From Patescibacteria group bacterium (lineage in GTDB: Bacteria > Patescibacteriota > Microgenomatia > UBA12405), in assembly GCA_018902845.1 (NCBI GenBank), contig JAHIPV010000020.1:74810-138809 (forward strand): a stretch of 64,000 nucleotides of DNA, given 5' to 3'. Made by a program: the position numbers and the translations under genes. The first letter of the stretch is position 1, and each line of letters begins with the position of its first letter. This document shows, piece by piece, positions 763-24,730 of this stretch. The notes below the pieces were generated by a model. The model was not told the DNA's origin. It saw nothing but the letters and a program-made list of their open reading frames with translations, and did no database searches.

Positions 763-2388
763 TTATTTAAAATCTTTGAGTTTGGAGAGGAATTTTAGGG
801 AGTATTTGGCTAGGTGGGTGAAGTCGTTTAGTGATCTTATGGAGAGGGTTTTTTTTAGTAAGAATTTTGGTGTTAAAACACCTTTGAAAAGAGATTGAAT
901 GAGTTGTATTTGTTTTTGTGATGAAATAGGAGATTTTATAACCGGCTGGCTCATGTCGTATTTGTCCCAATCTAGGGTAAGAAGCTTGTTGGCTTGTTTA
1001 AGCTCTTTAAAGAGTGGGGTGCCAGGATAAGGAATTAATAGAGTGGCTTGGATGGAATCGGCTAATCCGTCCTTGAATAACTGGCGAGCTAAGTTGAGGG
1101 TTTTTTGGGCGTCTGCTTCCGTTTCCCAAGGATAACCAATTATGATGGTAAGGTGATTTTCTATGCCGGCTTTCTTGGCCTTTACAAGAGTTTCTTTGAT
1201 ATCTGATACTTTAATGTTTTTATTGATTTTGTCTAAAGTTTTTTGATTAGCCGATTCAAGTCCGTATAGAATAAATCTGAAACCGGCTTTTTTCATCAGA
1301 TTAAACTCTTTTTGAGATAAAGCCCCCATTCTTAAATTACAGCCTAGTTTAATTTTTTTGTTAAAGCCCTTGTCTATTAGGCCATGGCAAAATTTTTTGA
1401 GCCAATCCCCTGTTGGAATAGTGCCGGAGTCATCAAAGACTTCTTTTATGTTGTAGTTTTCAATTAGATTTTGAATTTCTTTAAGGCTATGTTGAGGTGA
1501 AAAAGTTCGATAGGATTGGTTGGGAAAAAGTGTTGTCCAAGAACAGAAGGTACATTTTCCCCACCAGCAGTCACGGCCTGACATTATGTAGGCGCCGGGA
1601 GTGTATTTGAAGTTTGAATTGTTGTGGGTGTAGAGGTGGTTTTTGGTTAGAGCGCGATCGATGATGGGAAGAATATCTAGATTATGATTTTTTAGAGCGA
1701 ATTTACCGGAATTGAGGATTTTAGTATTGGTTTGTTTTTGGGGGGATCCTTCGACAGGCTCAGGATGACGATGGATAAGATTATGGTTTGATCTGAAATA
1801 AAAGCCCGGTGAGAGTTTGGTTCCTTTGGTCAGATGTTCTACTAAATTTAAGAGCATAAAGTCGTAGTCACCGCCGGTAAGGATGTAATCGACAGGAGAA
1901 TTTTTGAATGATTCAAGGGGTAGTGCGGTGACATGGTCGCCCATTAGGACGATGGTAGGCGTGTGTTGATTCCGATGGGATCTGCCAGAGGTGGACAGGT
2001 TGCCACGTCTGCGGGCGACCGCAAGGGTCGCCCCTACAAAAGAATTTGCAATAACAGTGGGTTTGTTGACAGAAAAAGCCTTTTTTATATCTTTGATTAT
2101 TTTCCAATGGGTTTTGATTACAGGAGTTTTGGTTTCTATGGCGATAAGACCGGGAGAGCGTTTGATTAAACGATTGAGCCATTGTTGGTATGAAAGTTTT
2201 TCTGCAATAGCGTCATCCCAAAAGACTTTATGGCCTTTGGATTTTAAAAGTGTAGCTGTATAAGCTGGAATGACGGGGAAAATAAAGTTTTTTGTGTTGG
2301 TCCATTGAAATTGGCGGTTTTGGGATAAAAAAGCAGTTTGGCTGTTTTTGTGAAGAGGAGGATAAGAGATTGAGACGGAAAAAGACAT
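763..2388 (-). CDS. B12-binding domain radical SAM protein. It carries two in-frame repeat insertions.
   Basis: Radical SAM cysteine cluster CWWGKCTFCSW and an N-terminal B12-binding-like domain. The ORF contains repeat copies at 1741..1774 (HRHPEPVEGS) and 1985..2057 (SFVGATLAVARRRGN). Confidence 0.7.
   Translation of the reverse strand: MSFSVSISYPPLHKNSQTAFLSQNRQFQWTNTKNFIFPVIPAYTATLLKSKGHKVFWDDAIAEKLSYQQWLNRLIKRSPGLIAIETKTPVIKTHWKIIKDIKKAFSVNKPTVIANSFVGATLAVARRRGNLSTSGRSHRNQHTPTIVLMGDHVTALPLESFKNSPVDYILTGGDYDFMLLNLVEHLTKGTKLSPGFYFRSNHNLIHRHPEPVEGSPQKQTNTKILNSGKFALKNHNLDILPIIDRALTKNHLYTHNNSNFKYTPGAYIMSGRDCWWGKCTFCSWTTLFPNQSYRTFSPQHSLKEIQNLIENYNIKEVFDDSGTIPTGDWLKKFCHGLIDKGFNKKIKLGCNLRMGALSQKEFNLMKKAGFRFILYGLESANQKTLDKINKNIKVSDIKETLVKAKKAGIENHLTIIIGYPWETEADAQKTLNLARQLFKDGLADSIQATLLIPYPGTPLFKELKQANKLLTLDWDKYDMSQPVIKSPISSQKQIQLIQSLFKGVLTPKFLLKKTLSIRSLNDFTHLAKYSLKFLSKLKDFK
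1985..2057. repeat. Family-A repeat (GNRA-tetraloop GC hairpin GGGCGACC-GCAA-GGTCGCCC with conserved flanks), intragenic in the radical SAM gene
   Basis: ccagaggtggacaggttgccacgtctgcgggcgaccgcaagggtcgcccctacaaaagaatttgcaataacag. Near-identical copies occur at 47437..47523, 48690..48768, 60124..60198 and 60380..60466. Confidence 0.9.
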
Positions 2389-3444: not shown

Positions 3445-4245
3445 TTATTGTCCGGTGTTGATGCGGAGTTGGAGATCGGGGTTGAATTTCCATTTTCTCT
3501 TGTTGGAATCGTTATAGTATCTAAGAATACGCAAACGATAAAAAATTGCCAAAGTGTCGATAAATGTTTTGTAAATTGTTTTTAGCATTGAATTATGCAG
3601 ATGTAAATTATCAAAATCATAATTTAGTTTGATTGGTGCTTCATATATACGTTTAAAACCTAAATGTTTTGAAACGGCTAAAATTTCGAGATCAAAGGCG
3701 AAGCTTTTTACTAAAAGCCTTGGCAAAACTTTTTCCAATACTTTTCTTTTAAAAATTTTTACTCCTGCCTGCGTATCACGGATTTTGAGATTAAAGAGTG
3801 TGCGAGAAATGAGATAAACAAAGAAGCTGATGATTTTTCGATCAATTGGGTAATTAACAAGGGAAGCGGGGTGGCGTTTTGATCCGACTATAATATCGGC
3901 GTCATACCATTCTAAGTGTTCCAGAAGCATAGAAATGCCGTTGGGATCGATTTCCATGCCTGCATCTATGAAGGCGATGTAATCCCCTTTTGTTTTTGTC
4001 ATACCAAAACGAATAGCGTGGCCTTTGCCGTGATTGTGTTTGTAAGTGTAAATTTTTAGATTTTTGCGTTTAATTTGTTGGCAGATTTTGTATGAGTTAT
4101 CTTCGTTTTTGCCGTCCACTATGGCAATGATTTCGTATGGATAACGAATTTTTTGTAAAGTATTGTCAATGTTTAAAATATCTTTTTTGATGGTTTTTTC
4201 TTGCTTGTAGATAGGGATGATGATTGAGAGGAAATGGGTATTCAT
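3445..4245 (-). CDS. Glycosyltransferase family 2
   Basis: LSIIIPIYKQEKTI..IAIVDGKNEDNS..DADI GT2 signature. The start is placed at the internal Met (ATG 4243..4245). The upstream 22 codons of the tracked ORF are the repeat element 4266..4324. Confidence 0.7.
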   Translation of the reverse strand: MNTHFLSIIIPIYKQEKTIKKDILNIDNTLQKIRYPYEIIAIVDGKNEDNSYKICQQIKRKNLKIYTYKHNHGKGHAIRFGMTKTKGDYIAFIDAGMEIDPNGISMLLEHLEWYDADIIVGSKRHPASLVNYPIDRKIISFFVYLISRTLFNLKIRDTQAGVKIFKRKVLEKVLPRLLVKSFAFDLEILAVSKHLGFKRIYEAPIKLNYDFDNLHLHNSMLKTIYKTFIDTLAIFYRLRILRYYNDSNKRKWKFNPDLQLRINTGQ

Positions 4246-4258
4246 TTTATGTTTTATT

Positions 4259-5404
4259 TCATTTAATCGGGCGACCGCAAGGGTCGCCCTTACGAATGTA
4301 TTTCGTGGCAATTGCGGGGTGACAGAGTCGGTAAACGGCCAGAGTTTGGAGAGCGGTCAGTTTCCATGAAAAAGCCCTGGCTCTTTTTTGTCCCAGTTTG
4401 GAAAATTTTTGTCTTAATTTTGGACTGGTCATGAGTTTTTTTAGGGCCTTTTTAATACTTTTAAGGGATTTTGGATTAAAAAATACTCCGTTATAGTCCA
4501 TAATTTCGGCCAAACTGCTTTGAAGACTATAACAAACCGGGCAACCCGATTGCATAGCCTCTAAGGGGGTAAGACCGAAGCCTTCGGCAAAAGATGGTTG
4601 GCAATAAAAAGTAGCCAGATTGTAGATTTTGGCAAGATCCGGATCAGGAACGAAGCCGGTAAGTGTTAAAAGCGGGTGGTGTGTTTTTTGGAGCCAGAGG
4701 AGATCTTGGTTCCAGGGATGATTAATTACGTTTTTGCGAGTAGCGGCAGAACCAACTATAACAAGTGGGTATTTTAAGGATAAACAGGCCCTAACAAGAT
4801 TGGGAATGTTTTTGTTCCAATTGATATCGCCAACATAAAGAACAAATTTTTTTGGCAGTTTGTATTTTTTCCTAATTTTTTCTAATTCTTTTGTGTTTTT
4901 GATTGATTTAAAAATTGGATCGGCTCCGAGATAAATAGGATAGATTTGGTCGGTTGGATATTTAGTGATTTTGTGTATTGCGTATTTTGAGAAGTGTGAA
5001 TCTGTGATAATATAATCGACTTTTTTTAGACGATTTTTTTGGATTAGCCAACGGACATTACCTTTTATGCCGACTGGATAGTGTTTTTTAAATTGGCGAG
5101 GGATAAGATCGTGGACTGTGACTATGGTAGGAACGGTTTTTTGAGGTAGGGTTAGTTGAAAAGGATCGAAATAAGGATAATGCAATAAATCAAAAGTTCC
5201 AATTTTTAATTTTTCCCCCTTCGGGTGACTTCGCTTCGCTTCGCAATTTTTAATTAGTTTTAAAGACCAGGATTTATATTCGGGGTTGGTTTTTAGTTCT
5301 CTTTGGAGATATTTGACTAGATTTTTGGTATAAAAACCAACTCCTCTTTTGGAATTGGCATTTTTTGTGGGAGAGATATCAATAGCGATTTTAAATTTTT
5401 TCAT
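4259..5404 (-). CDS. Glycosyltransferase family 4 (GT1-fold, RfaG-like)
   Basis: C-terminal EGFGLTPLEAMQSGCPV motif of GT4. The start is placed at MKKFKIAIDISP (ATG 5402..5404), overlapping the upstream stop. The last ~8 codons and the stop are supplied by the GC-hairpin repeat at 4266..4324. Confidence 0.75.
   Translation of the reverse strand: MKKFKIAIDISPTKNANSKRGVGFYTKNLVKYLQRELKTNPEYKSWSLKLIKNCEAKRSHPKGEKLKIGTFDLLHYPYFDPFQLTLPQKTVPTIVTVHDLIPRQFKKHYPVGIKGNVRWLIQKNRLKKVDYIITDSHFSKYAIHKITKYPTDQIYPIYLGADPIFKSIKNTKELEKIRKKYKLPKKFVLYVGDINWNKNIPNLVRACLSLKYPLVIVGSAATRKNVINHPWNQDLLWLQKTHHPLLTLTGFVPDPDLAKIYNLATFYCQPSFAEGFGLTPLEAMQSGCPVCYSLQSSLAEIMDYNGVFFNPKSLKSIKKALKKLMTSPKLRQKFSKLGQKRARAFSWKLTALQTLAVYRLCHPAIATKYIRKGDPCGRPIK
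4266..4324. repeat. Family-A repeat copy spanning the GT4 3' end and the GT2 5' region
   Basis: Hairpin core 4269..4289 with a ...cgtggcaattgcggggtgacag tail. Confidence 0.85.
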
Positions 5405-6213
5405 TAATTCCAGTCGGTTTTTAGATTTATAGATCGTTTGGTTTTTTTTAGTTCCCAGAATTTGATAAAAGCGATGGGGAAACGAAGAGAAGAAAAATAA
5501 CAAAAAATAAAACCGGGAAATCCATCTACAAAGCCTTTGTGTCTAAAGTAGGTTAATAAAAACCAATGAATTGGTTTGACAAGAAAATAATTTAAAATAC
5601 TTAGAAAATTAATTTTGAAATCTTGATCAATTAATTCTTGGGCTATTAGGGTGGTGTAGCGATTGTTGCGTTCTATATAGCGTGAAAATGAATAATCGGC
5701 GTAGTGAAGAAGATCGTTTTTTAGACTGCTGATTTTTCCATTTATTTCTACTTGTTCGTGAACCGATTTGCACGGTAGCCAACCTTTATTATTTTTAAAA
5801 AATCTGATAACCGGATCCGGATATTGTCCGCCTTTTTGCAAAAATTCACCTAAAAAATAATTTTTCCTTTTTATCCAAAAACCGTTATAGGGAACTTTGT
5901 TTATTGGTCTTTTTAAAATATATTGAATTTCTTTTTTTAGTCTTGGAGTGACTCTTTCGTCTGCATCTAATTGAAGAATCCAACCACCGTTGCATTTGTC
6001 TATGGCTTTTTGTTTATTAATATGAAAAATGGCTTTATTGGCGGTTTTGATTATCTTAACCTTTTTGTAGTTTTTGGCAATCTGGCGAGTTTTGTCAGTA
6101 GAGTTTCCGTCAACTAAAATTATTTCGTTGACCCATTTTAGACAATCAAGGAAGTCTTTTATGTTGTGTTCTTCGTTGTAGGTGGCAACGGCGACTGAGA
6201 TAGTATGTTTCAT
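5404..6213 (-). CDS. Glycosyltransferase family 2 (paralog of 22223..23029)
   Basis: VAVATYNEE..ILVDGNSTDKT..LQLDADE GT2 motifs. The C-terminal region is shared with the 22223..23029 protein. Confidence 0.75.
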   Translation of the reverse strand: MKHTISVAVATYNEEHNIKDFLDCLKWVNEIILVDGNSTDKTRQIAKNYKKVKIIKTANKAIFHINKQKAIDKCNGGWILQLDADERVTPRLKKEIQYILKRPINKVPYNGFWIKRKNYFLGEFLQKGGQYPDPVIRFFKNNKGWLPCKSVHEQVEINGKISSLKNDLLHYADYSFSRYIERNNRYTTLIAQELIDQDFKINFLSILNYFLVKPIHWFLLTYFRHKGFVDGFPGFIFCYFSSLRFPIAFIKFWELKKTKRSINLKTDWN

Positions 6214-6288: not shown

Positions 6289-8085
6289 TCATTGTTTAGT
6301 ATATATTTTAAACGCTGGGAGGTCGTTTGTGAAATTGATGATATCAACCGGCTGAATTGGAACAGTTTCGTTTGAGGCTACTATAAGTGAATTTGAAGGA
6401 ATATTATCCCAATTAATTTTTTCAAAATGAATATTATCTATTTGTTTTACTGTAGAAAAACCAAATTTATCCGGAGGTGTTAATTTGATTTGGTTATGAA
6501 GGGCAGGTGGTGGATATTTTGAATAAAAAAGATACAGGATGTAAGGTTGATCGTATTTATCGGTTATATAGATGTTGCTAAAATTATTTTTTTGAGACTC
6601 TATATAAGGAATTAGCCGATCAAAACCTTGATTCCATGCAAAGGGATAGCGTTTGGGGGAGTGAATGTGATAAGAGCTAAGGTAGTAGGCTATCGAGTAG
6701 GAGTAAAAAATAACAAGAAAGAAGAGTATGGAGGGTTGTTTGTGAGTAAGACTTAAGAAAGATTGAATACCAAAAGCGGTGAGGATAGTGAGGGGGATGA
6801 CCATGGGAAGAGCGCGGAGAGCGGATGGGGCCTGGAAAGTGAGGGATGAAGCTATGGGTGAGAGAAAAAGCCAGAGAAAAATAAACTTATAATTTGTTTG
6901 AGTGGTTATGAGATCCCTCGACTTCGCTCGGGATGACAATAACTTCGCTCGGGATGACAATAACTTCGCTCGGGATGACAATAACTTCGCTCGGGATGAC
7001 AGCATAACTACAATGCCTAGAATTAAAAATGGGAGTTCTATTAAATGGAATTGACCTATTTCTGGGCTTTTGGAACGTGGGACCTCGTCTCCATTGATAA
7101 AAAGAAAGTTTAAATCAAAGTGGGAAAAGTATTTTTCGGCCCATGAAATTGCGTAAAGAACTCGGGCATTATGTGTGATTCTGTTAATCAGTGTTGTTTT
7201 TTGACTTTGGTTAAAGTGGTGATTTAATAATTCATTGGAACGCCACAGTGGACCTTGATCGGCTGTTATACCAACTCCGGAAAAACGAGTTGTACCGCCA
7301 TTCTTGAAGAAGGAAAAAACAACTGGCAGAGTGATAAGGATGCCAAAAAATAAAGAAAGGATAAATTTTTTATGAGATCCTTCGGCAAGCTCAGGATGAC
7401 GTAGTATTTTATTTCGATTAATAAAAAATAAAGATAAAGCAAGTAAGGGGGCGAAAATGCGGGCAGAGTGATAGGTGTATAAAGAAAGAGAAAGGAAAAG
7501 AGCGAAGAGATAAAGATTGTGTTTTCCCCCTGCGGGTGACTGCGCTGATGCTTGTTTTGTGTTAGTGTTTTTGTAGAAATAATAAGTGCCGATAATAATA
7601 AACGAGAGGGCGGTACAGGATTCCCAGGCACCGCGGGAAAAGTGGATGTGCCAGGGGTTAATAGAAAGCAAGAAAGCAGAAAGTAGAGAAAGTGTTAAAT
7701 TGTTTGTAATAAGAAGAACAAGTTTGTAAAGAAAATAAATTGAAAGAATTGAAAGAATTAGGTTAGGGAGGCGAACAGCAAGAGGAGTAAGGCCAAGGAT
7801 TTTGATAAAAGGAAGAGTAAGGTAAAAATATCCTCCGGGTTTGAAGTCACTAAATGATTTAAAATGAATGGGCCAAGGGATACTGTGTTCGTCTTTTCCG
7901 GTTTGGAGTAAAGAGTAAGCATTGTAGCCGATAGCGGCTTCGTCTGGATTGAGAGAAGGAAGATTGGAGATATTGTAGAAACGGAGAAGAATTGCAAGGA
8001 TGAGAATATATACGATAGGATTCTTCGCTACGCTCAGAATGACGACTGTTGGTTTGGTTTTGTTTGATTGATGATTGTTTGTCAT
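6289..8085 (-). CDS. GT39/ArnT-like GT-C membrane glycosyltransferase, a protein O-mannosyltransferase-like paralog
   Basis: N-terminal NPDEAAIGYNAYSLLQTGKDEH..KPGGYFY..LAVRLPNLILS (DE motif, loop 1 of GT39/GT83) with many TM helices. It contains in-frame repeats: 6908..7004 (SSRAKLL x4), 7374..7401 (RHPELAEGS) and 7525..7557 (QSPAGG). Confidence 0.7.
   Translation of the reverse strand: MTNNHQSNKTKPTVVILSVAKNPIVYILILAILLRFYNISNLPSLNPDEAAIGYNAYSLLQTGKDEHSIPWPIHFKSFSDFKPGGYFYLTLPFIKILGLTPLAVRLPNLILSILSIYFLYKLVLLITNNLTLSLLSAFLLSINPWHIHFSRGAWESCTALSFIIIGTYYFYKNTNTKQASAQSPAGGKHNLYLFALFLSLSLYTYHSARIFAPLLALSLFFINRNKILRHPELAEGSHKKFILSLFFGILITLPVVFSFFKNGGTTRFSGVGITADQGPLWRSNELLNHHFNQSQKTTLINRITHNARVLYAISWAEKYFSHFDLNFLFINGDEVPRSKSPEIGQFHLIELPFLILGIVVMLSSRAKLLSSRAKLLSSRAKLLSSRAKSRDLITTQTNYKFIFLWLFLSPIASSLTFQAPSALRALPMVIPLTILTAFGIQSFLSLTHKQPSILFFLVIFYSYSIAYYLSSYHIHSPKRYPFAWNQGFDRLIPYIESQKNNFSNIYITDKYDQPYILYLFYSKYPPPALHNQIKLTPPDKFGFSTVKQIDNIHFEKINWDNIPSNSLIVASNETVPIQPVDIINFTNDLPAFKIYTKQ
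6908..7004. repeat. Family-B repeat with its 21-bp terminal unit tandemly amplified ~3.8x, in-frame in the GT39 gene
   Basis: gagatccctcg + (acttcgctcgggatgacaata) x3 + a partial unit. Translated on the minus strand as SSRAKLL x4. Confidence 0.9.
7525..7557. repeat. Family-C repeat CCCCCTGCGGGTGACTGCG, in-frame in the GT39 gene (QSPAGG)
   Basis: Other copies at 9234..9267, 9379..9410, 9962..9990, 14315..14345, 35410..35450 and 44616..44648. Variants with a ..GACTTCGCTTCGC tail occur at 5214..5247 and 20934..20964. Confidence 0.85.
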
Positions 8086-8104: not shown

Positions 8105-9913
8105 TTATTTTGGGAGGTTATGAGATCCCTCCACTTCGGTCGGGATGACAGAAGTTTGGTAGGCATAGAAGGTGGAAATATTATTAATTGGAGATAATTG
8201 TATTAATTTAGAAAAATCAGTTGATTTATCTATACCAAGGCGAATTATTTCTTGGTGTGAATAAATTACCAAAGTATTTTGTTGGCTTTTGATGAATTGG
8301 AAATCTGGTGCATGAAAGATAATGTTGTCGAGTTTTTCAATTTTACCTGTATCCCCTACTTGGTTTTTTGTCAAAAATGCTTGTTGTTGATATTTAAGAG
8401 GTGGATATTTTGAATAAAAAAGATAGTAGATGTATGGTTGGTTGTAGAAATCGGTAAAATATATATTGTCATATTTATTTTGATTTTTGATTAAATATTG
8501 AATTGATTCTTCGTAGCCGTATAAAAAGTCTTGAGGTGATTTTTTGGTCATATGGTTTAGGTATAGATCTGAATAGTAAAAAAAAGAGAAAAAATAGACA
8601 GTAATGAGCAAAAAGTAAAAAGTAAAGAAAATTGATTTATGACCGTGCCTACCGGCAGGCAGGTTTATGAAATATGATTTATGAATAAAACTTAAAAAAG
8701 AATTGAGGCCAAGAGAAATAAAGAAAACTATGGGGATGGAGAGGGACATGGTGCGGGTGGCTTGGATGGAATCACGGGTAAGAGAAGCGGGAATGGGGGC
8801 GATGAGAAGCCAGAATAGGAAGAAGATGGAAAGCGTTGAAAACGAAAGTGAATGAAAAATTCCAATGAGAAGAAAAATTATACTGGGGTAAAGAATAACA
8901 CCGATATAAGGAGCTGAGTGGCGGGGATTTTGCCAATCGCCTTGGAAAATAAGAAATTTAGGCGAAAAGTGATTAAAATAGCGGTTTAAAAAATTTCGTA
9001 GAAAAAAGATTGGTTGATTGTAAAAAATTTGATAGTCCAGTTTATTGCCTTCGGAGATAATTGTTTCAGTTTCTTGTTGGCTTCTGGGATAAGAAAAAAG
9101 ACTTAAGACTTTTAGACGATTAGTGTCAGATGAAAATAAGAGGCCATAAATAATGGGAAGGGAAAGAAGAAAGAGAGGAAGAATGAAGTGTTTTAAAAAT
9201 TTATTTTTGTTTTTTTGTATTTTCCCCCTGCGGGTGACTGCGTTGACATTTGTTTTTAAATTAATTGAAAACAAAATAAATATCAAAAACAGACTGATCA
9301 TTTTGGCTGACTGATAGGTGTATAGAGAAAGTGAAAAGGCAAGAGACGAGAGTAAAAAATAATTGTTTTTTTTAATGTTCCCCCTGCGGGTGACTGCGTT
9401 TTCGCTTGTGATGGCTTTGAAAAAAAAATAGGAAGCCAGAATTAATTGGAATGTAAGAATATTGGTTTCCCAGGCTCCCCTACTGTAGTGAATGTTGTAT
9501 GGATTGAAGGCTAATATCAGAGCTGATATTAGAGCTAAGTTGCGTGTTTTCTTGTTTTTGGGATTAATTTGGGTGATGAGCAAATACAAAAACAAAGGTG
9601 TTAATGAGCCTAAAATAATTGATGGCAGACGGACTGAAAGCGGATTAAGGCCGAATATGGCCACAAATGGAACAGTAAGATAGATATAAAAACCTGGTTT
9701 GTAGTCTCCAAAAGATTTAAAAATTAATGGCAAGAATTCACCATATTCGTCTTTGCCGGTTTTGAGAATTGAATAAGCGTTATAGCCGATAGCAGTTTCG
9801 TCCCAAAGTAAGGGTGGATACGAATTTGTTTTGTAAATTCTTATAAAAAAAGCTGTGAGGGTGATTAAAAGAAGGATTATTTTGGTTTTTTTATTCATAG
9901 GCAATGATTTCAA
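8105..9913 (-). CDS. GT39/ArnT-like GT-C membrane glycosyltransferase paralog
   Basis: WDETAIGYNAYSILKTGKDEYGEFLPLIFKSFGDYKPGFY..SVRLPSIILG. Two copies of the CCCCCTGCGGGTGACTGCG repeat are read as NAVTRRG (9234..9267, 9379..9410). The C-terminus EVEGSH comes from the repeat at 8117..8150. Confidence 0.7.
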   Translation of the reverse strand: MKSLPMNKKTKIILLLITLTAFFIRIYKTNSYPPLLWDETAIGYNAYSILKTGKDEYGEFLPLIFKSFGDYKPGFYIYLTVPFVAIFGLNPLSVRLPSIILGSLTPLFLYLLITQINPKNKKTRNLALISALILAFNPYNIHYSRGAWETNILTFQLILASYFFFKAITSENAVTRRGNIKKNNYFLLSSLAFSLSLYTYQSAKMISLFLIFILFSINLKTNVNAVTRRGKIQKNKNKFLKHFILPLFLLSLPIIYGLLFSSDTNRLKVLSLFSYPRSQQETETIISEGNKLDYQIFYNQPIFFLRNFLNRYFNHFSPKFLIFQGDWQNPRHSAPYIGVILYPSIIFLLIGIFHSLSFSTLSIFFLFWLLIAPIPASLTRDSIQATRTMSLSIPIVFFISLGLNSFLSFIHKSYFINLPAGRHGHKSIFFTFYFLLITVYFFSFFYYSDLYLNHMTKKSPQDFLYGYEESIQYLIKNQNKYDNIYFTDFYNQPYIYYLFYSKYPPLKYQQQAFLTKNQVGDTGKIEKLDNIIFHAPDFQFIKSQQNTLVIYSHQEIIRLGIDKSTDFSKLIQLSPINNISTFYAYQTSVIPTEVEGSHNLPK

Positions 9914-11549
9914 AAGCCGGGGTGTTGTCTAAAAAATTAATTGTTTTTAACAGTTTAGCGTCCCCCTGCGGGTGATTGGCATTTGTTTGTGGATAGTTGT
10001 TAGGAGAAGTAATGAGGAGAGTGGATGTACGAGAGGATCCTTCGACAAGCTCAGGATGACGAGGAACGATTTCCCAGTCATTTATAAATTTAAATTTATC
10101 AAAGGCATCGACCCAGTACCAATTAGCGTGATAATCCCAAACTTTATTGGGATCAGATTGATAAGTCTCTGGATCCCATGGCCAATAAAAGAGAACGAAT
10201 TCATGTGCTTCGCCGTATTTTTTGGTAAAGTAGATTTGATCATATTCTGAATAGTTTTCTTTTATAAAATCAATGGCTTGTTTATAACCATATTGCCATG
10301 ATTGTGAATATTTTTGGGGATAAAAATTAATATATTTGTTCCAATAAGAAAAGAATTGTAGAAATAGACCAAGAGAAATGATTGGCAAAAGTTTTGGCAT
10401 AAATTCAAGTCCCAGCGCAATCAAGATGTATGGAATTGGAAGTATACTAACAGCGCGGATAATGGGAAAATCCCCTGACGTAAGGGCCGAAGGGAGGAGT
10501 CCTATGATAAACCAAAGAAGAATTAGTTTTTTATTGTTTGGTGAAAGTTTGTTAAGCGATAAAATGCCAATATAAAAGAAAGGTAAACAAATCGAATAAA
10601 GAATGCCTGTGTTGGGAATATTAAACTGATAATTACCCGTTCCTTTGAAAAAGAGTAAATACGGATTAAGAAAGTTTATGTAGTTTGTAATAAATTTGGG
10701 AATAAAGTAAGTAAGCTTGTTGTGAACAAGACGGGCGAAAAAGGGCGATAGGGTGGATTGGCCTCTTTGGTGGTTAATAATATTAATGGCATCTTGATTG
10801 AGAATAAAAGTCCAACGAGAACGGGCTTGAGAATCTGGAAGACTTAAATTAATTAGCTGGGGTATGGTAAAGATTAGAAAAATGGCCATAGAGATTAAAA
10901 CTGTGTTTTTGTGTTTTTTGAATAGTGCTGAAGTTTGTTTTTTATAGATAAAAAGAATTATTGGTACAAGCAAAGGGATAACTATGCGGGTGTTGTGATA
11001 GGCGTATTGAGATAAAGCTAAAAAAACAGAAGAATAGATGAGGAGTGTTTTTTTTTGTTGTTTTAGGGTGTAAAGCAACAAGGTGATGCCACCGATAAGA
11101 AAAAAGGAAGAAATAGTGGATTGAAAAACAGCCCTGGAAGGGAATAAGCTCCAGGGGGAAACGGCACTAAGTAGTGTGACAAAAAGAGCCAATTTTTCTT
11201 TTTTTAAAATAAGCTTGGCAAGAAAATAGGTTGGAATTAAAGTAAGGGCGCCAAGCAGAGCTGATGGCAGACGAGAAGTGAATGCGTTTATTCCGAAGTA
11301 TTTAACCAAAGGAAGTGTTAGATACATGTTTAAAGTAGTGGGGAAATCGCCATAGGCGCGAAAGTTAAAAATTGGCCAAGAGACTCCCCACTGATCTTTG
11401 CCTGTTTTAGCGAGACTGTAGGCGTTATAGGTATGGCTAATTTCGTCCCAATTTAAGGAGGGAGGGAATTGATCAAGTTTGTATAGTCGAAGAAAAAGAG
11501 AAAAGATAAAAATAATTATGAATAAAATTTGGTGAGTTTTAATTTTCAT
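9891..11549 (-). CDS. GT39/ArnT-like GT-C membrane glycosyltransferase paralog
   Basis: NWDEISHTYNAYSLAKTGKDQWG..AFTSRLPSALLG. The C-terminus carries repeat-derived PRHPELVEGS (10034..10061) plus 9962..9990. The 3' end overlaps the start of the 8105..9913 gene. Confidence 0.7.
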   Translation of the reverse strand: MKIKTHQILFIIIFIFSLFLRLYKLDQFPPSLNWDEISHTYNAYSLAKTGKDQWGVSWPIFNFRAYGDFPTTLNMYLTLPLVKYFGINAFTSRLPSALLGALTLIPTYFLAKLILKKEKLALFVTLLSAVSPWSLFPSRAVFQSTISSFFLIGGITLLLYTLKQQKKTLLIYSSVFLALSQYAYHNTRIVIPLLVPIILFIYKKQTSALFKKHKNTVLISMAIFLIFTIPQLINLSLPDSQARSRWTFILNQDAINIINHQRGQSTLSPFFARLVHNKLTYFIPKFITNYINFLNPYLLFFKGTGNYQFNIPNTGILYSICLPFFYIGILSLNKLSPNNKKLILLWFIIGLLPSALTSGDFPIIRAVSILPIPYILIALGLEFMPKLLPIISLGLFLQFFSYWNKYINFYPQKYSQSWQYGYKQAIDFIKENYSEYDQIYFTKKYGEAHEFVLFYWPWDPETYQSDPNKVWDYHANWYWVDAFDKFKFINDWEIVPRHPELVEGSSRTSTLLITSPNNYPQTNANHPQGDAKLLKTINFLDNTPAFEIIAYE

Positions 11550-15040: not shown

Positions 15041-16792
15041 TTATAATTTTTGGATTATTTGGGCGAAGATTAAATTGTTTGGTAAATAAACTGTATCGAT
15101 TGTTTTAAAACCATCTGGTGGGTTTTTGCTTAGATCCCAGTCTCCAGGAATATCCAGAAGCTGGAAAAGAACAAAAGTATCTGAGCTTTGGGCTATTTTA
15201 GCAATTTTATCTATAGTTGATGTGGCGTTCCAGTTTGTGACGAAAAAGATTTGGTCGTTTAATTTGAAGCCGGATAAATCTTGGTAAAAATTATCAACAG
15301 TTTTGTCAGTAAAATTTGATTGATGGAGTGATTGTGGCGGATATTTGCTATAAAAAAGATAATGAATTAAAGAGGTATAGTTGCTGTTGCTGATAAAAAG
15401 ACGGTTGGTGTTTGATGGTATGGATTGCATAAGTTGTTGATAGCCATATTGCCATGATTGAAAAGAATCTTTGGGATAGCGAACAAAATAATTGCGATAA
15501 TAAAAAATCATATTGATTGATAACGATGTGATTATAAGTATGGTAATAATTTTTGATTTGTTGGTGATGGCAAGAAAGCCTTTGGAGACAAAATAGATTA
15601 GTGGTGGCAGTATCAAGAAAAGTCGAGTGGCTTGAGTACCGCCGTCTATGGTAAGACTGGTGGGTATAGGAGCTATTAGTAGCCAAAAAAACATAAGTTG
15701 ATTAGCTTTGCCGTTTTTTTTGTTTTTATTAATGGAAAAAAATCCAAACAGTAGGAGTGGTAAAAAGGTGATTGGCAGAAGACCAAAATCTGATGGACTG
15801 TGGCGAGGGTTAGGATCGCCGGAACGAAAAAGAAAATTGAAAGAAAGACTTGATAAATAATTATTGGTAAAAATATTTAGTGTTTTTGTCAGTTTGTTAT
15901 AAAAAATTCTTTCTGTTTCAGAATCAGTAGCAGAAAAGCCCGTTCTTTTTGTAATTATTTCTTCTGTTATTTTTGGGTTATTAAAGATACCAATGAGTTT
16001 GAAACGATTGGCGGCTGAACCGGAAAGAATGTTTTTGGCAAGAGGAAATAAAAGGAATAGGGCCAAAAAAGCTGGTGCTTGTTTTTTAGTTGCTTGTTTT
16101 TTGATTTCTTTAAAATTTGTGAGAATGAGAAATATAACAAGAAGTGGTGTGAAAATATTGGCGGTGTTATAAGTGTAAAAAGATAGTGAAAAAATAAAAA
16201 TGGAGAGATAAAGGTAGGGGGAAAATGATTGGTTTTTTTTGAGGGATTTGTAAAAATAATAAGTGCCGGAGAGGATGAGAGTGAGGAGAAGAGAAACTTC
16301 AAAGGCGGTGCGACTGTAGTGGAAGTGCCAGTTTGATAGGCCTAGGAATACAGAAGAAAGAAGAGCCAGATTAGAGTTTTTGGTTTGGATTTTGACTAAT
16401 TTATATAAATAAACAATGGCTAGAATGGCGAAAACAACCGAAGGTAAACGAACAGCAATTGGATTAAGCCCAAAGAGTAATACAAATGGAATGGTGGTGT
16501 ACATGAGTAAAGGAGCTCGAGATTCGGCCAAAGAGTCTATATAAAAAGGTAATAAATTTCCTTTGTAGTCTTTGGCGGTTTTTAAAAGAGAATAGGCATG
16601 ATATCCAACGTCGGCTTCGTCGCCAAAAAGTGGGAGAATGTCTAGTTTGTAAAGTCTTAAAAAGATAGATATAAAAAAAATGGTAATGAGAAAAAATTTT
16701 ATGAAGATGTTGAATAGGTTTCTGGGGGATCCTTCGTCCGATGAATCGGACTCAGGATGACGAATAGGAAAAAATTTTATTTTTTGTGACAT
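15041..16792 (-). CDS. GT39/ArnT-like GT-C membrane glycosyltransferase paralog
   Basis: GDEADVGYHAYSLLKTAKDYKGNLLPFYIDSLAESRAPLLMY..AVRLPSVVFA. The start is chosen at the internal Met (MSQKIKF..) because the upstream part overlaps the GT2 gene. The N-terminal RHPESDSSDEGS comes from the repeat at 16725..16762. Confidence 0.65.
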   Translation of the reverse strand: MSQKIKFFPIRHPESDSSDEGSPRNLFNIFIKFFLITIFFISIFLRLYKLDILPLFGDEADVGYHAYSLLKTAKDYKGNLLPFYIDSLAESRAPLLMYTTIPFVLLFGLNPIAVRLPSVVFAILAIVYLYKLVKIQTKNSNLALLSSVFLGLSNWHFHYSRTAFEVSLLLTLILSGTYYFYKSLKKNQSFSPYLYLSIFIFSLSFYTYNTANIFTPLLVIFLILTNFKEIKKQATKKQAPAFLALFLLFPLAKNILSGSAANRFKLIGIFNNPKITEEIITKRTGFSATDSETERIFYNKLTKTLNIFTNNYLSSLSFNFLFRSGDPNPRHSPSDFGLLPITFLPLLLFGFFSINKNKKNGKANQLMFFWLLIAPIPTSLTIDGGTQATRLFLILPPLIYFVSKGFLAITNKSKIITILIITSLSINMIFYYRNYFVRYPKDSFQSWQYGYQQLMQSIPSNTNRLFISNSNYTSLIHYLFYSKYPPQSLHQSNFTDKTVDNFYQDLSGFKLNDQIFFVTNWNATSTIDKIAKIAQSSDTFVLFQLLDIPGDWDLSKNPPDGFKTIDTVYLPNNLIFAQIIQKL

Positions 16793-17670
16793 TTTGAAGA
16801 TAACCAGATAATAAGTGTTAACAGATAATGCTTCAAAAGACCGTGGTAAATTTTTGAGCTGGGAATAAGTCGTCGCCATTGATTTTCGGAATTGCTTAAA
16901 CTTTTTCCACTAAGGCCGTGGTAGTGAATAACTTTGCATTGTGGATAACAATAAACTTGCTTGACTGATTTGTGTATCCGGCGACAAAGGTCGAGATCTT
17001 CAAAATACATAAAATATTTTTCATTCCATTTGCCGAGTTGATCAAAGAGTTTTTTTGATATAAGAAAAGCACCGCCAGAAATGGCGTAAACAGAGGAAGG
17101 GGTTGTATCCTTGGGTATATTTTTAGTAAAGGCATATTTTTGCCCAAGCCAAAATTCTTTAAATGCGTTTAAAATAGATTGTTTTGGAAAAACAGAGGCT
17201 TGTGGGGTTTTGTTTGGATTTAAAAATTGGGGGCCAATAGCCCCAACTTTGGGACTTTTTTGAAGAAATTGAAGCATATTGACAATAGAACTATCAACTA
17301 ATTTCATGTCTGAGTTAAGAAAAAGTAAATAGTCGCCTTTGGCTTTTTTAGAGGCTATATTGTTTCCTTTGGCAAAACCGAAATTCGAAGAATTTTGAAT
17401 TAATTGGATTTTTACGTCATTCTGAGGCGAAGCCGAAGAATCTCGTTGTTGTTTTTGCCGATTCCGAGGGGATCCTTCTCCCCCTTGCGGGTGATCAGGA
17501 TGACGATGTATAAGGGTTTTTTTGATTTGATTAACAGAATTGTCTGTGGAGGCGTTGTCGGCAACGATGATTTCGTGTTTAATGTCTTTGATATATTTAA
17601 AAATTGATTTAATGCAGTTTATAGTGGCTTTGGGTGTGTTCCAGTTGAGAATGATGATGCTAAGGTCCAT
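16777..17670 (-). CDS. Glycosyltransferase family 2 with an in-frame ~90-nt repeat insertion
   Basis: IIILNWNTPKAT..IVADNASTDNS..LFLNSDM GT2 motifs. The insert at 17415..17505 encodes HRHPDHPQGGEGSPRNRQKQQRDSSASPQND. Confidence 0.75.
   Translation of the reverse strand: MDLSIIILNWNTPKATINCIKSIFKYIKDIKHEIIVADNASTDNSVNQIKKTLIHRHPDHPQGGEGSPRNRQKQQRDSSASPQNDVKIQLIQNSSNFGFAKGNNIASKKAKGDYLLFLNSDMKLVDSSIVNMLQFLQKSPKVGAIGPQFLNPNKTPQASVFPKQSILNAFKEFWLGQKYAFTKNIPKDTTPSSVYAISGGAFLISKKLFDQLGKWNEKYFMYFEDLDLCRRIHKSVKQVYCYPQCKVIHYHGLSGKSLSNSENQWRRLIPSSKIYHGLLKHYLLTLIIWLSSKCHKK
17415..17505. repeat. Long family-B variant (CGTCATTCTGAGG..GAAGAATC + GGGGATCCTTC..CAGGATGACG) in-frame in a GT2 gene
   Basis: cgtcattctgaggcgaagccgaagaatctcgttgttgtttttgccgattccgaggggatccttctcccccttgcgggtgatcaggatgacg. 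Near-identical copies occur at 24335..24450 and 63373..63452. Confidence 0.9.
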
Positions 17671-20968: not shown

Positions 20969-22147
20969 TTAATTTATTATTTCTAATAATTTTTTTTCAA
21001 AGTTTTGTTTGGAAAATTTAGCGGAATCTTGTTGTGTTTGAACGGATAATTGTTCCATTAATTGCGGAGAACCGATAAGAAGTTGGGTTTTGGAAACCAA
21101 TTCGTCTATATCGCTCCAAAGGAAACCGTTTTTTCTTTCATTGATTATTTCTGGTAAACCACCCTTTTTTACCACAATTGGAATTGTTCCGGAAGCCATG
21201 GCTTCGACTACGGCCATACCAAAATGTTCGGTATTTTGGGGATTAATATTTTCGTCTACTCCAAAGCCTGCCGCATGCCAATAAATTTTGCTTTGGGAAT
21301 AAATTTTTTTGAGGGTGTCAAAATTTGGACCGATTAAAAATTCAATGGGAAAATTTTTGGCTTCATATTTTAAGTGTTTTAGGTAATTATTAAGCTCAGG
21401 TTTTTTTATAGAACCGCCGACCAAAATTAATTTCCAGTCTTTGTTGTTTTGATTTTGACTAAGTTTTTTGAAGGCTTTGATAAGAATATCCTGCCTTTTT
21501 TTGTTTAATATATTGTCAAATCTGCCAACCGATAAAATAATGTTTTCTTTTTTACCGGAGGCTGAAAATTTATCTGTATCTATGGGGGGGTATAACAGAG
21601 AGGATTTGTGGTGAAAGGTTTTTTTGAATTGATCTTGAGTGAAGATAGAATTGCAAATAATGTTTTTGTTTAAAAACAGTTTAAGTTTGTTGGCTATTTT
21701 GGTTTGAAAACTGAATTTGTTGGTAAAAGGAACTTGGCAGTGAAGAATGTTTTTTTTGGCAAAAAGAATTGGAATACTGCCATCGCTTAGATAGAAAAAA
21801 AGATTGTAATTGCGAGTAATCTTAAGCTTGTTTAGTAGATGTTTAACTTTTCCTAAGTTTGTACGTGTTTCTTTTTGTGTACTATTGATTTTTTTTAGTT
21901 GGCTGTGATCTTGGATTAAATCGATGTTTTGTTGGGGTTGACTAAAAATGTCGGGAACCAGATTGAGGTTTTCTAAATTTAGGGCAAATCTATCTTGGGC
22001 CTTGTCAATTAAATCTTTGTCTTTGGACCAAAATATATCAACTTGATAATTATGTTTTAAGAGAATTTCGGCGATAGTGAGCATGTAGCGCTCCCCTCCG
22101 CCGAGAGTGTCTAAGTAAGGATCGTATATGCCGACTTTTAATGGCAT
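20969..22147 (-). CDS. Glycosyltransferase family 4 (GT1-fold)
   Basis: C-terminal NTEHFGMAVVEAMASGTIPIV GT4 EX7E-type motif. Directly upstream lie a 4 x 8-bp tandem repeat and a TTAAGTATATATG box. Confidence 0.75.
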   Translation of the reverse strand: MPLKVGIYDPYLDTLGGGERYMLTIAEILLKHNYQVDIFWSKDKDLIDKAQDRFALNLENLNLVPDIFSQPQQNIDLIQDHSQLKKINSTQKETRTNLGKVKHLLNKLKITRNYNLFFYLSDGSIPILFAKKNILHCQVPFTNKFSFQTKIANKLKLFLNKNIICNSIFTQDQFKKTFHHKSSLLYPPIDTDKFSASGKKENIILSVGRFDNILNKKRQDILIKAFKKLSQNQNNKDWKLILVGGSIKKPELNNYLKHLKYEAKNFPIEFLIGPNFDTLKKIYSQSKIYWHAAGFGVDENINPQNTEHFGMAVVEAMASGTIPIVVKKGGLPEIINERKNGFLWSDIDELVSKTQLLIGSPQLMEQLSVQTQQDSAKFSKQNFEKKLLEIIN

Positions 22148-23182: not shown

Positions 23183-23458
23183 TTAATTACAAAGATCTTT
23201 GAACTTTGGATTTAATTTTTTAATTAAACTAATTTTTTTGTTTCTGTTCCAGTTTTTAATTTGTTTTTCTCTTGCTATTGCTTCATTAATGTTGTTGTAT
23301 TCTTCAATATAAATTGGTTTATTTATATTATATTTGGCAGTAAAGCTATTATGTTTTTTGAGTTTGTGTTCGAAATATCTTTTTTCTAGGTTGTTGGTAA
23401 CACCAGTATACAGAGTACCTGAATTATTGGTAAGAATGTATAAAAAATATGATTTCAC
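23183..23458 (-). CDS. Stand-alone GIY-YIG nuclease-domain protein (UPF0213/YhbQ-like)
   Basis: YFLYILTNNSGTLYTGVTNNLEKRYFEHK matches the GIY-YIG core. At 91 aa it is flanked on both sides by repeat elements. Confidence 0.65.
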   Translation of the reverse strand: MKSYFLYILTNNSGTLYTGVTNNLEKRYFEHKLKKHNSFTAKYNINKPIYIEEYNNINEAIAREKQIKNWNRNKKISLIKKLNPKFKDLCN

Positions 23459-23585: not shown

Positions 23586-24626
23586 TTATTTCCAGCGGCC
23601 TTTGTTAAAGCGCTGAAGATAAAAGTCGATGATACCGCGTTTTTCCCAAGAATATTTGGAACTAAATAATTTTTCTACTGATTGGCGAATAATGGCCAGT
23701 TTGACTCGAAATGAAGCATGGCGCATGGCAAAAAGAAGTCGGTTTCTGGAGATAAAATAGTGATGCAAGTTTCCGCCCGTACCCGATGATTGAGCGTTTA
23801 AATGCCAAATTTTTGAATCAGGAATATAAGCAAGTTTATATCCTGCCTTTTTGGCCTTTTGGCAAAAGTCAATATCTTCCAGATACATGAAATATTTTTT
23901 ATCAAACAAGCCAATTTCTTTGAATAATTTTGATTTGACAAGCATACAACATCCGGAAATAAAGTCTATTTTAGTAGTGAATTTATTGAATTGACCTTTG
24001 TCAATTTGATCGACTCCAATGTTTGAGCCCAAGATATTGTCCCAATCCATGTAACCGCCGGCAGACCAGATGATATTACCCAGCTCATTTTTTTTGTATC
24101 TATTTTTGTGAAATTCGTAACCTTTGGCAAAATAGATTTTGGGTCCCAATATAGCCAGTTTGGGATTTTTTTGGGCGGATTTTAATAAAATTTGAAGAAA
24201 ATCAGGATCAACCAAAACGTCATTGTTGATTACTAGAATATAGTCAAAGTTTTCTTTTAAGGCTTGTTTGATGCCAAAATTGTTGCCGTTGGCATAACCC
24301 AAGTTTGAAGAGGTTTGGAGAATTTGGATTTTTACGTCATTCTGAGGCGAAGCCGAAGAATCCCGTTGTTGTTTTTGCCGATTTCGAGGGGATCCTTCTT
24401 CGCCGGTCGGCGAATCAGGATGACGGTGGGAAGGATCAGGATGGCGGTGTGTGAATTTATTAAATAATTCGATTGAATTATCGGTGGAGGCGTTGTCAAC
24501 CAAAAAGATTTTGTAGTTAAAAGAAGTATGCTTAATTTTAAGAAGAGATTTAATAGTTTGGATGGTGAGCGCGGGCTGATTCCAGTTAAGAACGATGATG
24601 GCAATTTTAGTTTTATTTTTTGTCAT
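23586..24626 (-). CDS. Glycosyltransferase family 2 with an in-frame repeat insertion
   Basis: IAIIVLNWNQPALT..LVDNASTDNS..VINNDV motifs. The start ATG at 24624..24626 is the terminus of the composite leader element. The insert at 24335..24450 encodes HRHPDPSHRHPDSPTGEEGSPRNRQKQQRDSSASPQND. Confidence 0.75.
   Translation of the reverse strand: MTKNKTKIAIIVLNWNQPALTIQTIKSLLKIKHTSFNYKIFLVDNASTDNSIELFNKFTHRHPDPSHRHPDSPTGEEGSPRNRQKQQRDSSASPQNDVKIQILQTSSNLGYANGNNFGIKQALKENFDYILVINNDVLVDPDFLQILLKSAQKNPKLAILGPKIYFAKGYEFHKNRYKKNELGNIIWSAGGYMDWDNILGSNIGVDQIDKGQFNKFTTKIDFISGCCMLVKSKLFKEIGLFDKKYFMYLEDIDFCQKAKKAGYKLAYIPDSKIWHLNAQSSGTGGNLHHYFISRNRLLFAMRHASFRVKLAIIRQSVEKLFSSKYSWEKRGIIDFYLQRFNKGRWK
24335..24450. 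repeat. Long family-B variant in-frame in a GT2 gene (paralog of the 17415..17505 insert)
   Basis: The same ~60-nt 5' half as 17415..17505, followed by ggggatccttcttcgccggtcggcgaatcaggatgacggtgggaaggatcaggatggcg. Confidence 0.9.
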
Positions 24627-24728
24627 TTCGACCAAAGTGGAGAAATCTCTGAATTTATTTCAGAAATCCGCTTTTGGCGGATATCTCAGACAAGCCGAGA
24701 GATCCCTCGACTTCGCTCGGGATGACAA
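24621..24728. repeat. Composite ~108-nt 5' leader element; its 'tgtcat' terminus supplies the GT2 start codon
   Basis: tgtcatttcgaccaaagtggagaaatctctgaatttatttcagaaatccgcttttggcggatatctcagacaagccgagagatccctcgacttcgctcgggatgacaa. Confidence 0.9.
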
Positions 24729-24730
24729 GC

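Follow-up and report, generated by a model that had tools for sequence, protein, structure and literature searches.

How do the same nucleotide repeats come to lie both between the genes of a tiny Patescibacteria group bacterium from groundwater and inside the open reading frames (ORFs) of its conserved enzymes? The question is raised by a stretch of 64,000 nucleotides (contig JAHIPV010000020.1, positions 74,810 to 138,809; hereafter the window), for which an earlier note, made from the sequence alone, had proposed in-frame insertion of repeats in the manner of the Rickettsia palindromic elements (RPEs). The repeats are indeed present where that note had placed them, inside open ORFs for a radical SAM protein, UvrC and UvrA as well as intergenically. 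Very probably they are copies of hairpin repeats of the tagged repetitive extragenic palindrome (REP) type that survive in frame in permissive loops. The window has ~35% G+C and 43 of its 47 long ORFs on the minus strand, is 100% identical to JAHIMY010000028.1 (GCA_018895715.1, 'Patescibacteria group bacterium') and to three further assemblies, and encodes proteins whose nearest named relatives belong to Candidatus Shapirobacteria / Microgenomates. Its gene content comprises a large glycosylation cluster (GT2, GT1/GT4, about nine GT-C/PMT-like membrane proteins, a flippase, a methyltransferase and the radical SAM protein) and housekeeping genes (FtsEX-M23, release factor, SecA, SerRS, LysRS, GreA, TyrRS, UvrC and UvrA).

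Three module types recur in the window: H units, a GTAG-headed hairpin, and a small CCCCCTGCGGGTGA module (P module; 12 copies). Read from its tagged end, an H unit has the form (C/T)GTC-AT-xyz-interior-z'y'x'-AT-C. It is present in 37 copies (20 tagged CGTC and 17 TGTC), all with an uninterrupted stem of 5 bp around an interior of 11-20 nt, which sometimes holds a further hairpin. Six complementary pairs of stem triplets occur (CCT/AGG, TCT/AGA, CCC/GGG, TCC/GGA, TTC/GAA and TGC/GCA), and the stem is followed by C-C/T-C-N (CCCC, CCCG, CCCA, CTCT and the like), which is C-rich but differs from the CCA consensus of published CGTC-tagged REPs. A loose hairpin pattern was matched 49 times compared with 10.9 times in shuffles. 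When arms were anchored regardless of pairing, a fully complementary partner triplet was found in 37 of 43 right arms, in six compensatory variants, which argues for compensatory variation and not chance. The GTAG hairpin (GTAG-GGGCGACC-CTTGC-GGTCGCCC) has a GC-rich stem of 8 bp and ten copies, one of them with GTAAG; its 25-mer GGGCGACCGCAAGGGTCGCCCCTAC occurs nine times exactly and once with one mismatch.

The modules are frequently combined. Single H units measure 25-35 nt, doublets and composites ~85-107 nt. Nine strict inverted pairs take up 18 of the 37 H units, and each is a heterodimer, of TCT and CCT or of TTC and CCC units; in a tenth pair (55063-55186) one partner is degenerate, and in every pair the tags face outward. 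Nesting is also seen: the loop of a tagged unit can hold a GTAG hairpin or a P module. In the C-long composite (family D4; 88-107 nt, five copies) the GTAG hairpin is nested in the interior of a GTCATTGC...GCAA[C/T] unit and forms within the predicted fold, while in a second composite (family D5; four copies) two H units serve as terminal inverted repeats around three small hairpins:

24620..24729, intergenic: 107-nt composite D5 (fold z = -4.69), with further copies at 23067-23175, 42900-43008 and 55080-55187

As single-stranded DNA, doublets and composites are predicted to fold far better than shuffles (z = -3.3 to -4.7). Orientation follows one DNA strand: all ten GTAG hairpins lie on the plus strand, all 12 P modules share one orientation, and so do nearly all single H units; none of the ten GTAG hairpins forms an inverted doublet in the window. 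Scans of the window with Rfam (gathering thresholds) and for tRNAs returned no matches.

Among 59 modules, 36 (~60%) are contained in maximal ORFs, 7 straddle an ORF end and 16 are intergenic. The intragenic status claimed in the earlier note stands for most copies, but about nine of the 36 are within ~35 codons of the start or ~15 codons of the end of a maximal ORF and may be non-coding, and the tyrS copies lie upstream of the annotated gene. Some 25 copies are clearly internal, spread over about 15 of the 47 ORFs (about one third). The ten GTAG hairpins are divided between the interior of maximal ORFs (five: radical SAM protein, UvrC, M23 N-terminal region, GT1/GT2 overlap and tyrS leader), stop codons (three, which supply the TAG stop of the neighbouring gene for UvrC, Fic and DUF4349) and intergenic sites (two). 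Every host ORF stays open across its insert, with the frame kept and without stop codons in the intragenic copies. The earlier note attributed this to selection for frame-preserving insertions. Frames are kept, but a survivorship filter is the better wording, because ORFs make up 91% of the window and module density is ~6-fold higher outside them.

The gene for the radical SAM protein illustrates how such inserts relate to their host:

763..2388, minus strand: B12-binding-type radical SAM gene, 541 amino acids (aa), intact ORF
1741..1774 (unit 1745-1769), minus strand: single CGTC-tagged unit CGTCATCCTGAGCCTGTCGAAGGATCC, read as RHPEPVEGS, aa 207-215
1960..2064 (GTAG hairpin 2013-2037), minus strand: C-long composite, read as KPTVIANSFVGATLAVARRRGNLSTSGRSHRNQHT (FVGATLAVAR..., aa 109-143)

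Orthologues of this protein are typically 485-521 aa long, compared with 541 aa in the window. Twenty of them align end to end, and the KPTVIANSFVGATLAVARRRGNLSTSGRSHRNQHT segment is without counterpart except for a slot in the closest one (P0001; protein 91% identical), which holds another element, an H doublet read as VIPSEAEES...RSLHFGRDD. At this site (site 1) the window carries a C-long of 107 nt and the related locus L001 an H doublet of 95 nt, and the difference of 12 nt means that the frame is kept. Most Shapirobacteria/Microgenomates orthologues lack the inserts of this protein. The RHPEPVEGS loop is empty in many orthologues and is occupied by other repeat-like peptides (ILPSSREKAPSL, TSLRGVRHGGRRGN, CHPELVSGSQR and SLRGAKRRGNL among them) in P0003, P0004, P0018, P0024, P0031, P0042 and P0080. 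Distant orthologues do not carry the same peptide at the same position; where that position is filled, the repeat-derived peptides are different ones. In the AlphaFold model, which like that of UvrC was built on an orthologue alignment, the predicted local distance difference test score (pLDDT) falls below 50 at aa 109-140 and 203-220, both coil between confident secondary-structure elements. With the swapped site left out, comparison with the relative in L001 gave a synonymous divergence (dS) of 0.18 and a ratio of nonsynonymous to synonymous divergence (dN/dS) of 0.083. Since the RHPEPVEGS insert is common to both, the gene has been under purifying selection since that insertion.

The divergence of the radical SAM gene from L001 (29-1651) is itself mosaic. 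Substitutions are concentrated in the 5' third of the gene; the remaining 3' two-thirds, like the neighbouring methyltransferase gene, hardly differ (dS 0.009), which suggests recombination between related populations.

A second group of hosts is formed by the nucleotide excision repair genes at the right-hand end of the window:

60185..61651, minus strand: uvrC, 488 aa; an identical protein (P0121) is annotated in NCBI
60593..60690 (repeat 60596-60687), minus strand: inverted doublet in the UvrC RNase H-like domain, RHSESPAGRRRI...GSFGRKLSQDD, ~aa 320-353 (fold z = -3.67)
60378..60468 (repeat 60378-60465), minus strand: C-long in UvrC (site 2), SVIANSFVGATLAVARNHGNLPASG, ~aa 396-425
60121..60208, unstranded: C-long between the convergent tyrS and uvrC genes, replacing the last uvrC codons
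62355..64000, minus strand: uvrA, of which the C-terminal 547 aa are in the window (full gene 919 aa; E = 1.6e-203 to PDB 6n9l)
63372..63455 (repeat 63375-63451), minus strand: inverted doublet in UvrA, VILSTAKDP...EILRLHLRMT (hairpin z = -4.18)

UvrC has 488 aa here compared with 412-416 aa in most of the lineage, and in an alignment with the endonuclease domain of Thermotoga maritima UvrC two gaps (~40 and ~25 residues) coincide with both internal repeats. Most orthologues are empty at both sites, and a few carry other repeat-like peptides (VIARSEATKQSR, VIANLSVSKVKQSR and VIASLSMSKAQQS). The AlphaFold model again has pLDDT below 50 at aa 316-355 and 404-426, in coil flanked by confident secondary structure. 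At the 3' end of the gene, the GTAG of the C-long at 60121..60208 supplies the uvrC TAG stop (60185-60187). In UvrA, query aa 177-217 remain unaligned opposite residues 300-312 of PDB 6n9l, an insert of ~28 residues that corresponds to the doublet and sits in the linker between the two nucleotide-binding domains. About 3 kb past the window end in the same genome, UvrB (L121, 2722-4863) has an insert of ~48 residues at an interdomain junction, query aa 406-456 facing residues 405-407 of PDB 9gy7_E; it is an H doublet, 86% identical to the doublet in the GT2 gene 16777..17670. All three Uvr genes therefore carry repeats.

UvrC of the whole lineage lacks the C-terminal (HhH)2 domain, with only GIY-YIG, UVR and RNase H-like domains detected. 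Truncation of UvrC by a REP insertion was considered as the cause and rejected, as a UvrC of ~413 aa is found lineage-wide.

Measured against orthologues and solved structures, the copies inside genes are additions, as the earlier note had supposed: they are absent from most radical SAM and UvrC orthologues, and the UvrA, UvrC and UvrB inserts are absent from the structures. The inserts in these four proteins amount to 9-48 extra residues between conserved blocks. Its suggestion of surface loops also agrees with the data, since the inserts fall between blocks aligned with PDB homologues and, for the radical SAM protein and UvrC, in modelled low-confidence coil; the models support a position in permissive loops or linkers. 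That the segments are instead ancestral or convergent low-complexity linkers, or that the hosts are pseudogenes or assembly artefacts, is barely credible. The length of loops does vary among orthologues of the host proteins, and this is the sole point in favour of linkers; the same nucleotide repeats are found intergenically and in unrelated genes, and most orthologues and PDB homologues do not have them. As for pseudogenes or artefacts, the ORFs are intact, the radical SAM gene has a dN/dS of 0.08 and the sequence is identical in four independent assemblies.

Two of the sites described above appear to have been used more than once. At UvrC site 2, a single 25-nt GTCATCCTGAGCGTAGCGAAGGATC unit is present in the relative in L125, whose protein is 84% identical; its element and that of the window start with GTCAT at the same host position and differ internally. 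Together with radical SAM site 1, this reuse could be due to a hot spot or to in-place replacement of resident copies by gene conversion or nesting. Replacement, as opposed to repeated insertion at a hot spot, has a substantial chance of being correct, if somewhat less than an even one. The common start and position at UvrC site 2, the presence of two different ~100-nt elements in radical SAM genes whose proteins are 91% identical, and the evident nesting of modules in one another all speak for it. Distant orthologues, on the other hand, hold unrelated repeat peptides or none, which independent insertions explain equally well, and no conversion tracts have been demonstrated.

What the inserts encode depends on the frame in which each was received. 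Translations of the H element are RHPE..EGS, VILS..KDP and SSRAK.., those of the GTAG hairpin VGATLAVAR, RKGDPCGRP and RATARVAPT, so that the repeated unit is DNA and not a peptide; the RHPE and VILS signatures are, as had been noticed before, one module in different frames. Because the elements are GC-rich, four to five of their six frames are open, and CCT/TCT-stem units never occur in the third sense frame, where TGA would arise. Predicted insert-host junction peptides include IHRHPEPVEGSPQK, SFVGATLAVAR, NLIHRHPEPVEGSPQK, ANSFVGATLAVAR and HSESPAGR. One claim of the earlier note failed here, namely that a repeat family (its family C) is used in two frames within one protein: ORF 8105..9913 is the only protein with two free-standing CCCCCTGCGGGTGA modules, and both are in the same frame (VTRRG), the SPAGG and HPQGG frames being found in other proteins.

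The same constraints bear on whether the inserts reach the protein at all. Structured GC-rich elements in an AT-rich genome might be excised at the RNA level or bypassed by the ribosome, for which the GC-rich 'byp' elements of Magnusiomyces mitochondria and T4 gene 60 offer a comparison. This is very improbable here: the frame is kept, stops are absent, the lengths of alternative elements at one site are a multiple of three apart and the TGA frame is avoided, all of which would be needless if the segments were skipped. To count host families in databases, a HMMER search with a 35-aa element peptide was run against 1.84 billion representative proteins; it returned a single irrelevant repetitive protein, the query being too short and inserts being hidden by clustering at 50% identity. 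Two element peptides joined end to end had no match in a word-indexed protein search.

We propose that small non-coding hairpin repeats of the tagged REP kind would have spread as DNA through an AT-rich genome of the Candidate Phyla Radiation (CPR), most likely via a strand-specific, single-strand hairpin-dependent process like that of REPs and of REP doublets forming hairpins (REPINs). For the GTAG class, the known analogue would be single-strand transposition mediated by REP-associated tyrosine transposases (RAYTs). Insertions that break genes would be purged, and the survivors within genes would be those that add 3n bases, bring no stop and fall in a loop or linker, where they would be translated as 9-48 extra residues. 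We infer the translation of the inserts, the transposition mechanism and its enzyme, and the functional neutrality of the peptides.

Several results weigh against this account. No transposase (RAYT/IS200-like, Y1 or other) was found in the window ORFs scanned or in 7.6 kb beyond, no recurrent neighbour gene accompanies the GTAG 25-mer in 118 loci of other genomes, and no target-site duplication or direct repeat flanks the elements. Contigs with an identical UvrC are all 100% identical to the window, so that filled-versus-empty polymorphism, which would point to recent mobility, was not observed. A lone H unit folds weakly (z = -0.46) and has no stable hairpin by energy. Finally, the UvrC doublet is identical to that of L125 at 94 of 95 nt (98.9%), compared with ~88% in the rest of the gene (binomial P ~7e-5), in one comparison with the sole close relative from the metagenome scan. 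A doublet with higher identity than its host gene is a poor fit to purely neutral passenger DNA, and its high identity argues for nucleic-acid constraint, homogenisation or recent exchange rather than free drift.

Selection might accordingly act on the nucleic acid and keep the intragenic copies as DNA or RNA hairpins that bind proteins, control translation or the stability of mRNA, or mark sites of recombination; such a role would fit an insertional origin as well. We regard this as unlikely, if well worth keeping in mind. Besides the conserved doublet, it gains from the compensatory stems, the folding of doublets beyond shuffles, the strand-specific orientation, and the recurrence of REPs in uvr genes across phyla (PMC3733652), here in uvrA, uvrB and uvrC. 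The conservation rests on a single comparison, though, and could equally arise by gene conversion from copies elsewhere in the genome or by recombination between lineages, the radical SAM gene being visibly mosaic; moreover, most orthologues do without the elements, which are found in many unrelated genes. A stronger form, in which the CGTC/TGTC repeats are actively maintained by homogenisation or nucleic-acid selection even in essential genes, uvrA, uvrB and uvrC included, and depend on a mobilising or structure-specific nuclease, with the GIY-YIG ORF 23183..23458 as candidate, appears improbable. Were it true, a minimal genome of the ~1-Mb class would provide a short candidate list for the missing CGTC-REP enzyme and a case of intragenic hairpins with a function.

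That ORF is a stand-alone GIY-YIG gene of 91 aa (PF01541, E = 1.4e-13; minus strand). It lies in an intergenic island of 550 nt, with a TGTC-tagged unit on either side (23148-23173 and 23499-23524; both in the same orientation), and is located beside a 107-nt composite. No GIY-YIG homologues were found in the 118 foreign loci carrying the 25-mer. From this single co-location, a link with the repeats as a homing-type or structure-specific nuclease is possible, and so is coincidence.

The repeats are not confined to this genome. The exact 25-mer GGGCGACCGCAAGGGTCGCCCCTAC is present in at least 118 genome stretches (L003-L120) with unrelated flanks from at least seven phyla, with Chloroflexota, Clostridia, Bacteroidota, Gammaproteobacteria, Actinomycetes, Planctomycetota and Acidobacteriota among the hosts. 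Elsewhere it is often found in inverted doublets (e.g., L005, L016, L017, L042 and L047) with sister variants of GTAGGGGC-stem, and 15 H units were counted in the same foreign loci, compared with none in a shuffle. Among viral contigs from IMG/VR (L160-L189), the 25-mer occurs in 23, one of which, of 43.6 kb, has five copies in a single orientation, and CGTCATCCTGAG...GAAGGATCC units were detected in seven.

Within the window, other host genes carry the same modules:

6907..7002, minus strand: TGTC-tagged unit with three extra tandem 21-nt copies of its arm in the GT-C/PMT gene 6289..8085 (family D11)
7376-7400, 7526-7539 and 8019-8043, minus strand: further modules in GT-C gene 6289..8085, RHPELAEGS, SPAGG and VILSVAKNP (N-terminal), respectively
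9224..10060, minus strand: modules in GT-C genes, VTRRG twice in 8105..9913, NHPQGD and RHPELVEGS in 9891..11549
17413..17507, minus strand: inverted doublet in GT2 gene 16777..17670, aa 56-85; a CCCCTTGCGGGTGA module is nested in it
24333..24428, minus strand: inverted doublet in the paralogous GT2 gene 23586..24635, aa 71-100 (family D13; 82% identical to 17341-17508)
29572..29596, minus strand: single unit in the 632-aa ORF 28994..30892, VILSLPKDP
32635..32660, minus strand: TGTC-tagged unit with ATTGC/GCAAT stem in GT-C gene 32175..33905, VIASEAWQS
35410..35771, minus strand: two modules in GT-C gene 34839..36362, SPAGG and VILSQSKDP
38319..38448, minus strand: GTAG hairpin and unit fragments in the N-terminal region of the FtsEX-linked M23 peptidase ORF, FFVGATLAVARKYDTPVIARKS
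58851..58968, unstranded: cluster upstream of tyrS (doublet, P module and GTAG hairpin) inside a maximal ORF

In both GT2 paralogues the doublet splits the Pfam GT2 domain in two, and the repeat at 6907..7002 is predicted to be translated as (SSRAKLL)x3-SSRAKSRDL. Some copies in paralogous GT-C and GT2 genes (families D13 and D18) were probably inherited by gene duplication and are not independent. Translation of the M23 N-terminal repeat depends on the true start codon, and the tyrS cluster lies upstream of the start of the annotated 377-aa tyrS. In the glycosylation cluster, the ORFs 3445..4311 and 4259..5503 were considered as one gene split by a repeat; this was rejected, as they are distinct GT2 and GT1 genes.

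The M23 peptidase gene (37194..38492, minus strand, 3' of ftsE-ftsX) stops right after a YLHMQ motif, and its Pfam match covers profile positions 1-53 of 96, so that the second half of the domain is missing. The catalytic HxH motif of M23 peptidases is located in this second half. A tagged unit (37156-37181) lies within 15 nt past the stop. On sequence grounds, the product would be either a truncated, non-catalytic EnvC-like activator or that of a gene shortened by the repeat.

The window has further features of composition and repeat content. G/C disparity between its DNA strands is very strong, with a GC skew of about +0.3 on the plus strand over the whole window. In 18 genes examined on the coding strand, the third-codon-position skew is -0.4 to -0.6 for minus-strand genes and +0.4 to +0.6 for plus-strand genes; the sign flips with the strand of the gene, and the skew is therefore tied to the DNA strand and not to gene direction. 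Despite this strand-tied skew, the C-rich strand carries 43 of the 47 long ORFs. A similar whole-chromosome G/C disparity has been reported for the Microgenomates order UBA1400 (Kadnikov et al., 2020; PMC7143001). A pair of HicA toxin and HicB-like antitoxin genes (43467..43974, minus strand) adjoins a lysine-rich ORF of 142 aa in an area without long ORFs. Tandem arrays of 8 nt (coding-strand AGTCATCC / AGTTATCY, 4-7 copies; family D9) at 22145-22200, 39356-39427 and 48596-48660 are located ~20 nt 5' of the start codons of three minus-strand genes (GT1 20969..22147, ftsX and a DHH phosphoesterase gene), each followed by the common leader CATATATACTTAA(A/C)TCATG, and may be a promoter or operator motif. 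An AT-rich motif, AATTTTTAATTTCTAATTTTTAAT (families D15 and D20), which may represent a promoter or terminator context, recurs at gene boundaries:

3347-3384, 14961-14998, 20964-20987, 25699-25722, 28894-28931 and 58794-58831: copies of the AATTTTTAATTTCTAATTTTTAAT motif

The in-frame inserts extend intragenic tagged REPs, a class that includes some Rickettsia RPEs, to the CPR. They affect CPR protein lengths, alignments and Pfam domain calls, where domains appear split, and the peptides VGATLAVAR, RHPExxEGS and VILSxxKDP in metagenomic proteins can be recognised as repeat-derived. Repeats can also supply stop codons and C-termini. A small genome with many copies that are apparently turning over may suit a search for the mobiliser of CGTC REPs, open since the 2013 survey discussed below, and may help to test why repair genes are hit so often.

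Among known systems, the MITEs (miniature transposable elements with inverted repeats) that make in-frame fusions, such as Coxiella QMITE, ERIC and those of Anabaena (PMC10969869; PMC5896051) are likewise short and non-autonomous, with ends resembling terminal inverted repeats and long hairpins, and are occasionally found inside ORFs. The window elements differ from them in having no visible target-site duplication and no known parent insertion sequence, and in being GC-rich in an AT-rich genome, the opposite of how MITEs are usually described. Fungal mitochondrial GC clusters, or double-hairpin elements, are also GC-rich, invade AT-rich genomes and are sometimes in frame in genes; they differ in being organellar and unrelated in sequence, and some are bypassed in translation rather than translated.

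Rickettsia RPE-1 (Ogata et al., 2000, Science 290:347), as far as it is described in a later review (PMC10969869), is a palindrome of ~100-150 bp with a conserved peptide in one frame. It shares with the window units, on that description, the in-frame presence in many unrelated conserved genes at fold-compatible positions, and intergenic copies as well. The window units are unlike it in their length of 25-35 nt, their use of two to three frames, the lack of a single conserved peptide and the unrelated host lineage. The analogy with RPEs drawn in the earlier note holds, and more closely than it had foreseen: RPE-4 and RPE-6 were classed with the CGTC REPs that our units resemble, a link that rests on the published classification (PMC3733652).

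GTAG REPs and REPINs are mobilised by RAYTs (Nunvar et al., 2010, PMC2817692; Bertels and Rainey, 2011, PMC3116915). The GTAG hairpin of the window has in common with them its GTAG head, the GC-rich 8-bp hairpin, many copies, the use of TAG as a stop and some intragenic copies. Unlike REPINs, the window copies have one orientation and form no doublet, and half of them lie inside maximal ORFs, contrary to the typical extragenic location of REPs, but the published superfamily admits intragenic copies. The 25-mer spans many phyla; classical REPs, by contrast, are usually said to be confined to a species or genus.

The closest counterpart of the H units is found in the survey of Di Nocera, De Gregorio and Rocco (2013; BMC Genomics 14:522, PMC3733652), who sorted REPs into GTAG- and CGTC-tagged superfamilies. 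CGTC REPs, for which no transposase is known, often have TGTC (also CCTC) as their tag, a stem of 8-9 bp starting with A-T/T-A, a loop of 4-5 nt and a 3' tail with the consensus CCA, and inverted dimers, often heterodimers, predominate; their families were equated with Neisseria dRS3 and with Rickettsia RPE-4 and RPE-6 (PMC3733652). In-frame intragenic REPs were reported in the same study, often in uvrA, uvrB and other repair genes, as were TAG stops supplied by GTAG REPs (PMC3733652). H units share with the CGTC REPs the tag and the AT stem start (each in 37 of 37 units), the inverted heterodimers and the intragenic in-frame copies. They differ in their 5-bp stem, as opposed to 8-9 bp, in their interior of 11-20 nt in place of a 4-5-nt loop, in a CPR host from a phylum outside the 2013 survey, and in their very high density. 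On these features they are filed as a divergent family of the CGTC-tagged kind, outside the four published families. A literature search found no report of such repeats in CPR, nor of these repeat sequences. The phenomenon itself is already known from GTAG and CGTC REPs and some RPEs, and is met here in a new phylum and at an unusually high density; what goes beyond the 2013 survey (PMC3733652) is the presence of differing elements at identical sites, a doublet more conserved than its host gene, and a strand-specific orientation.

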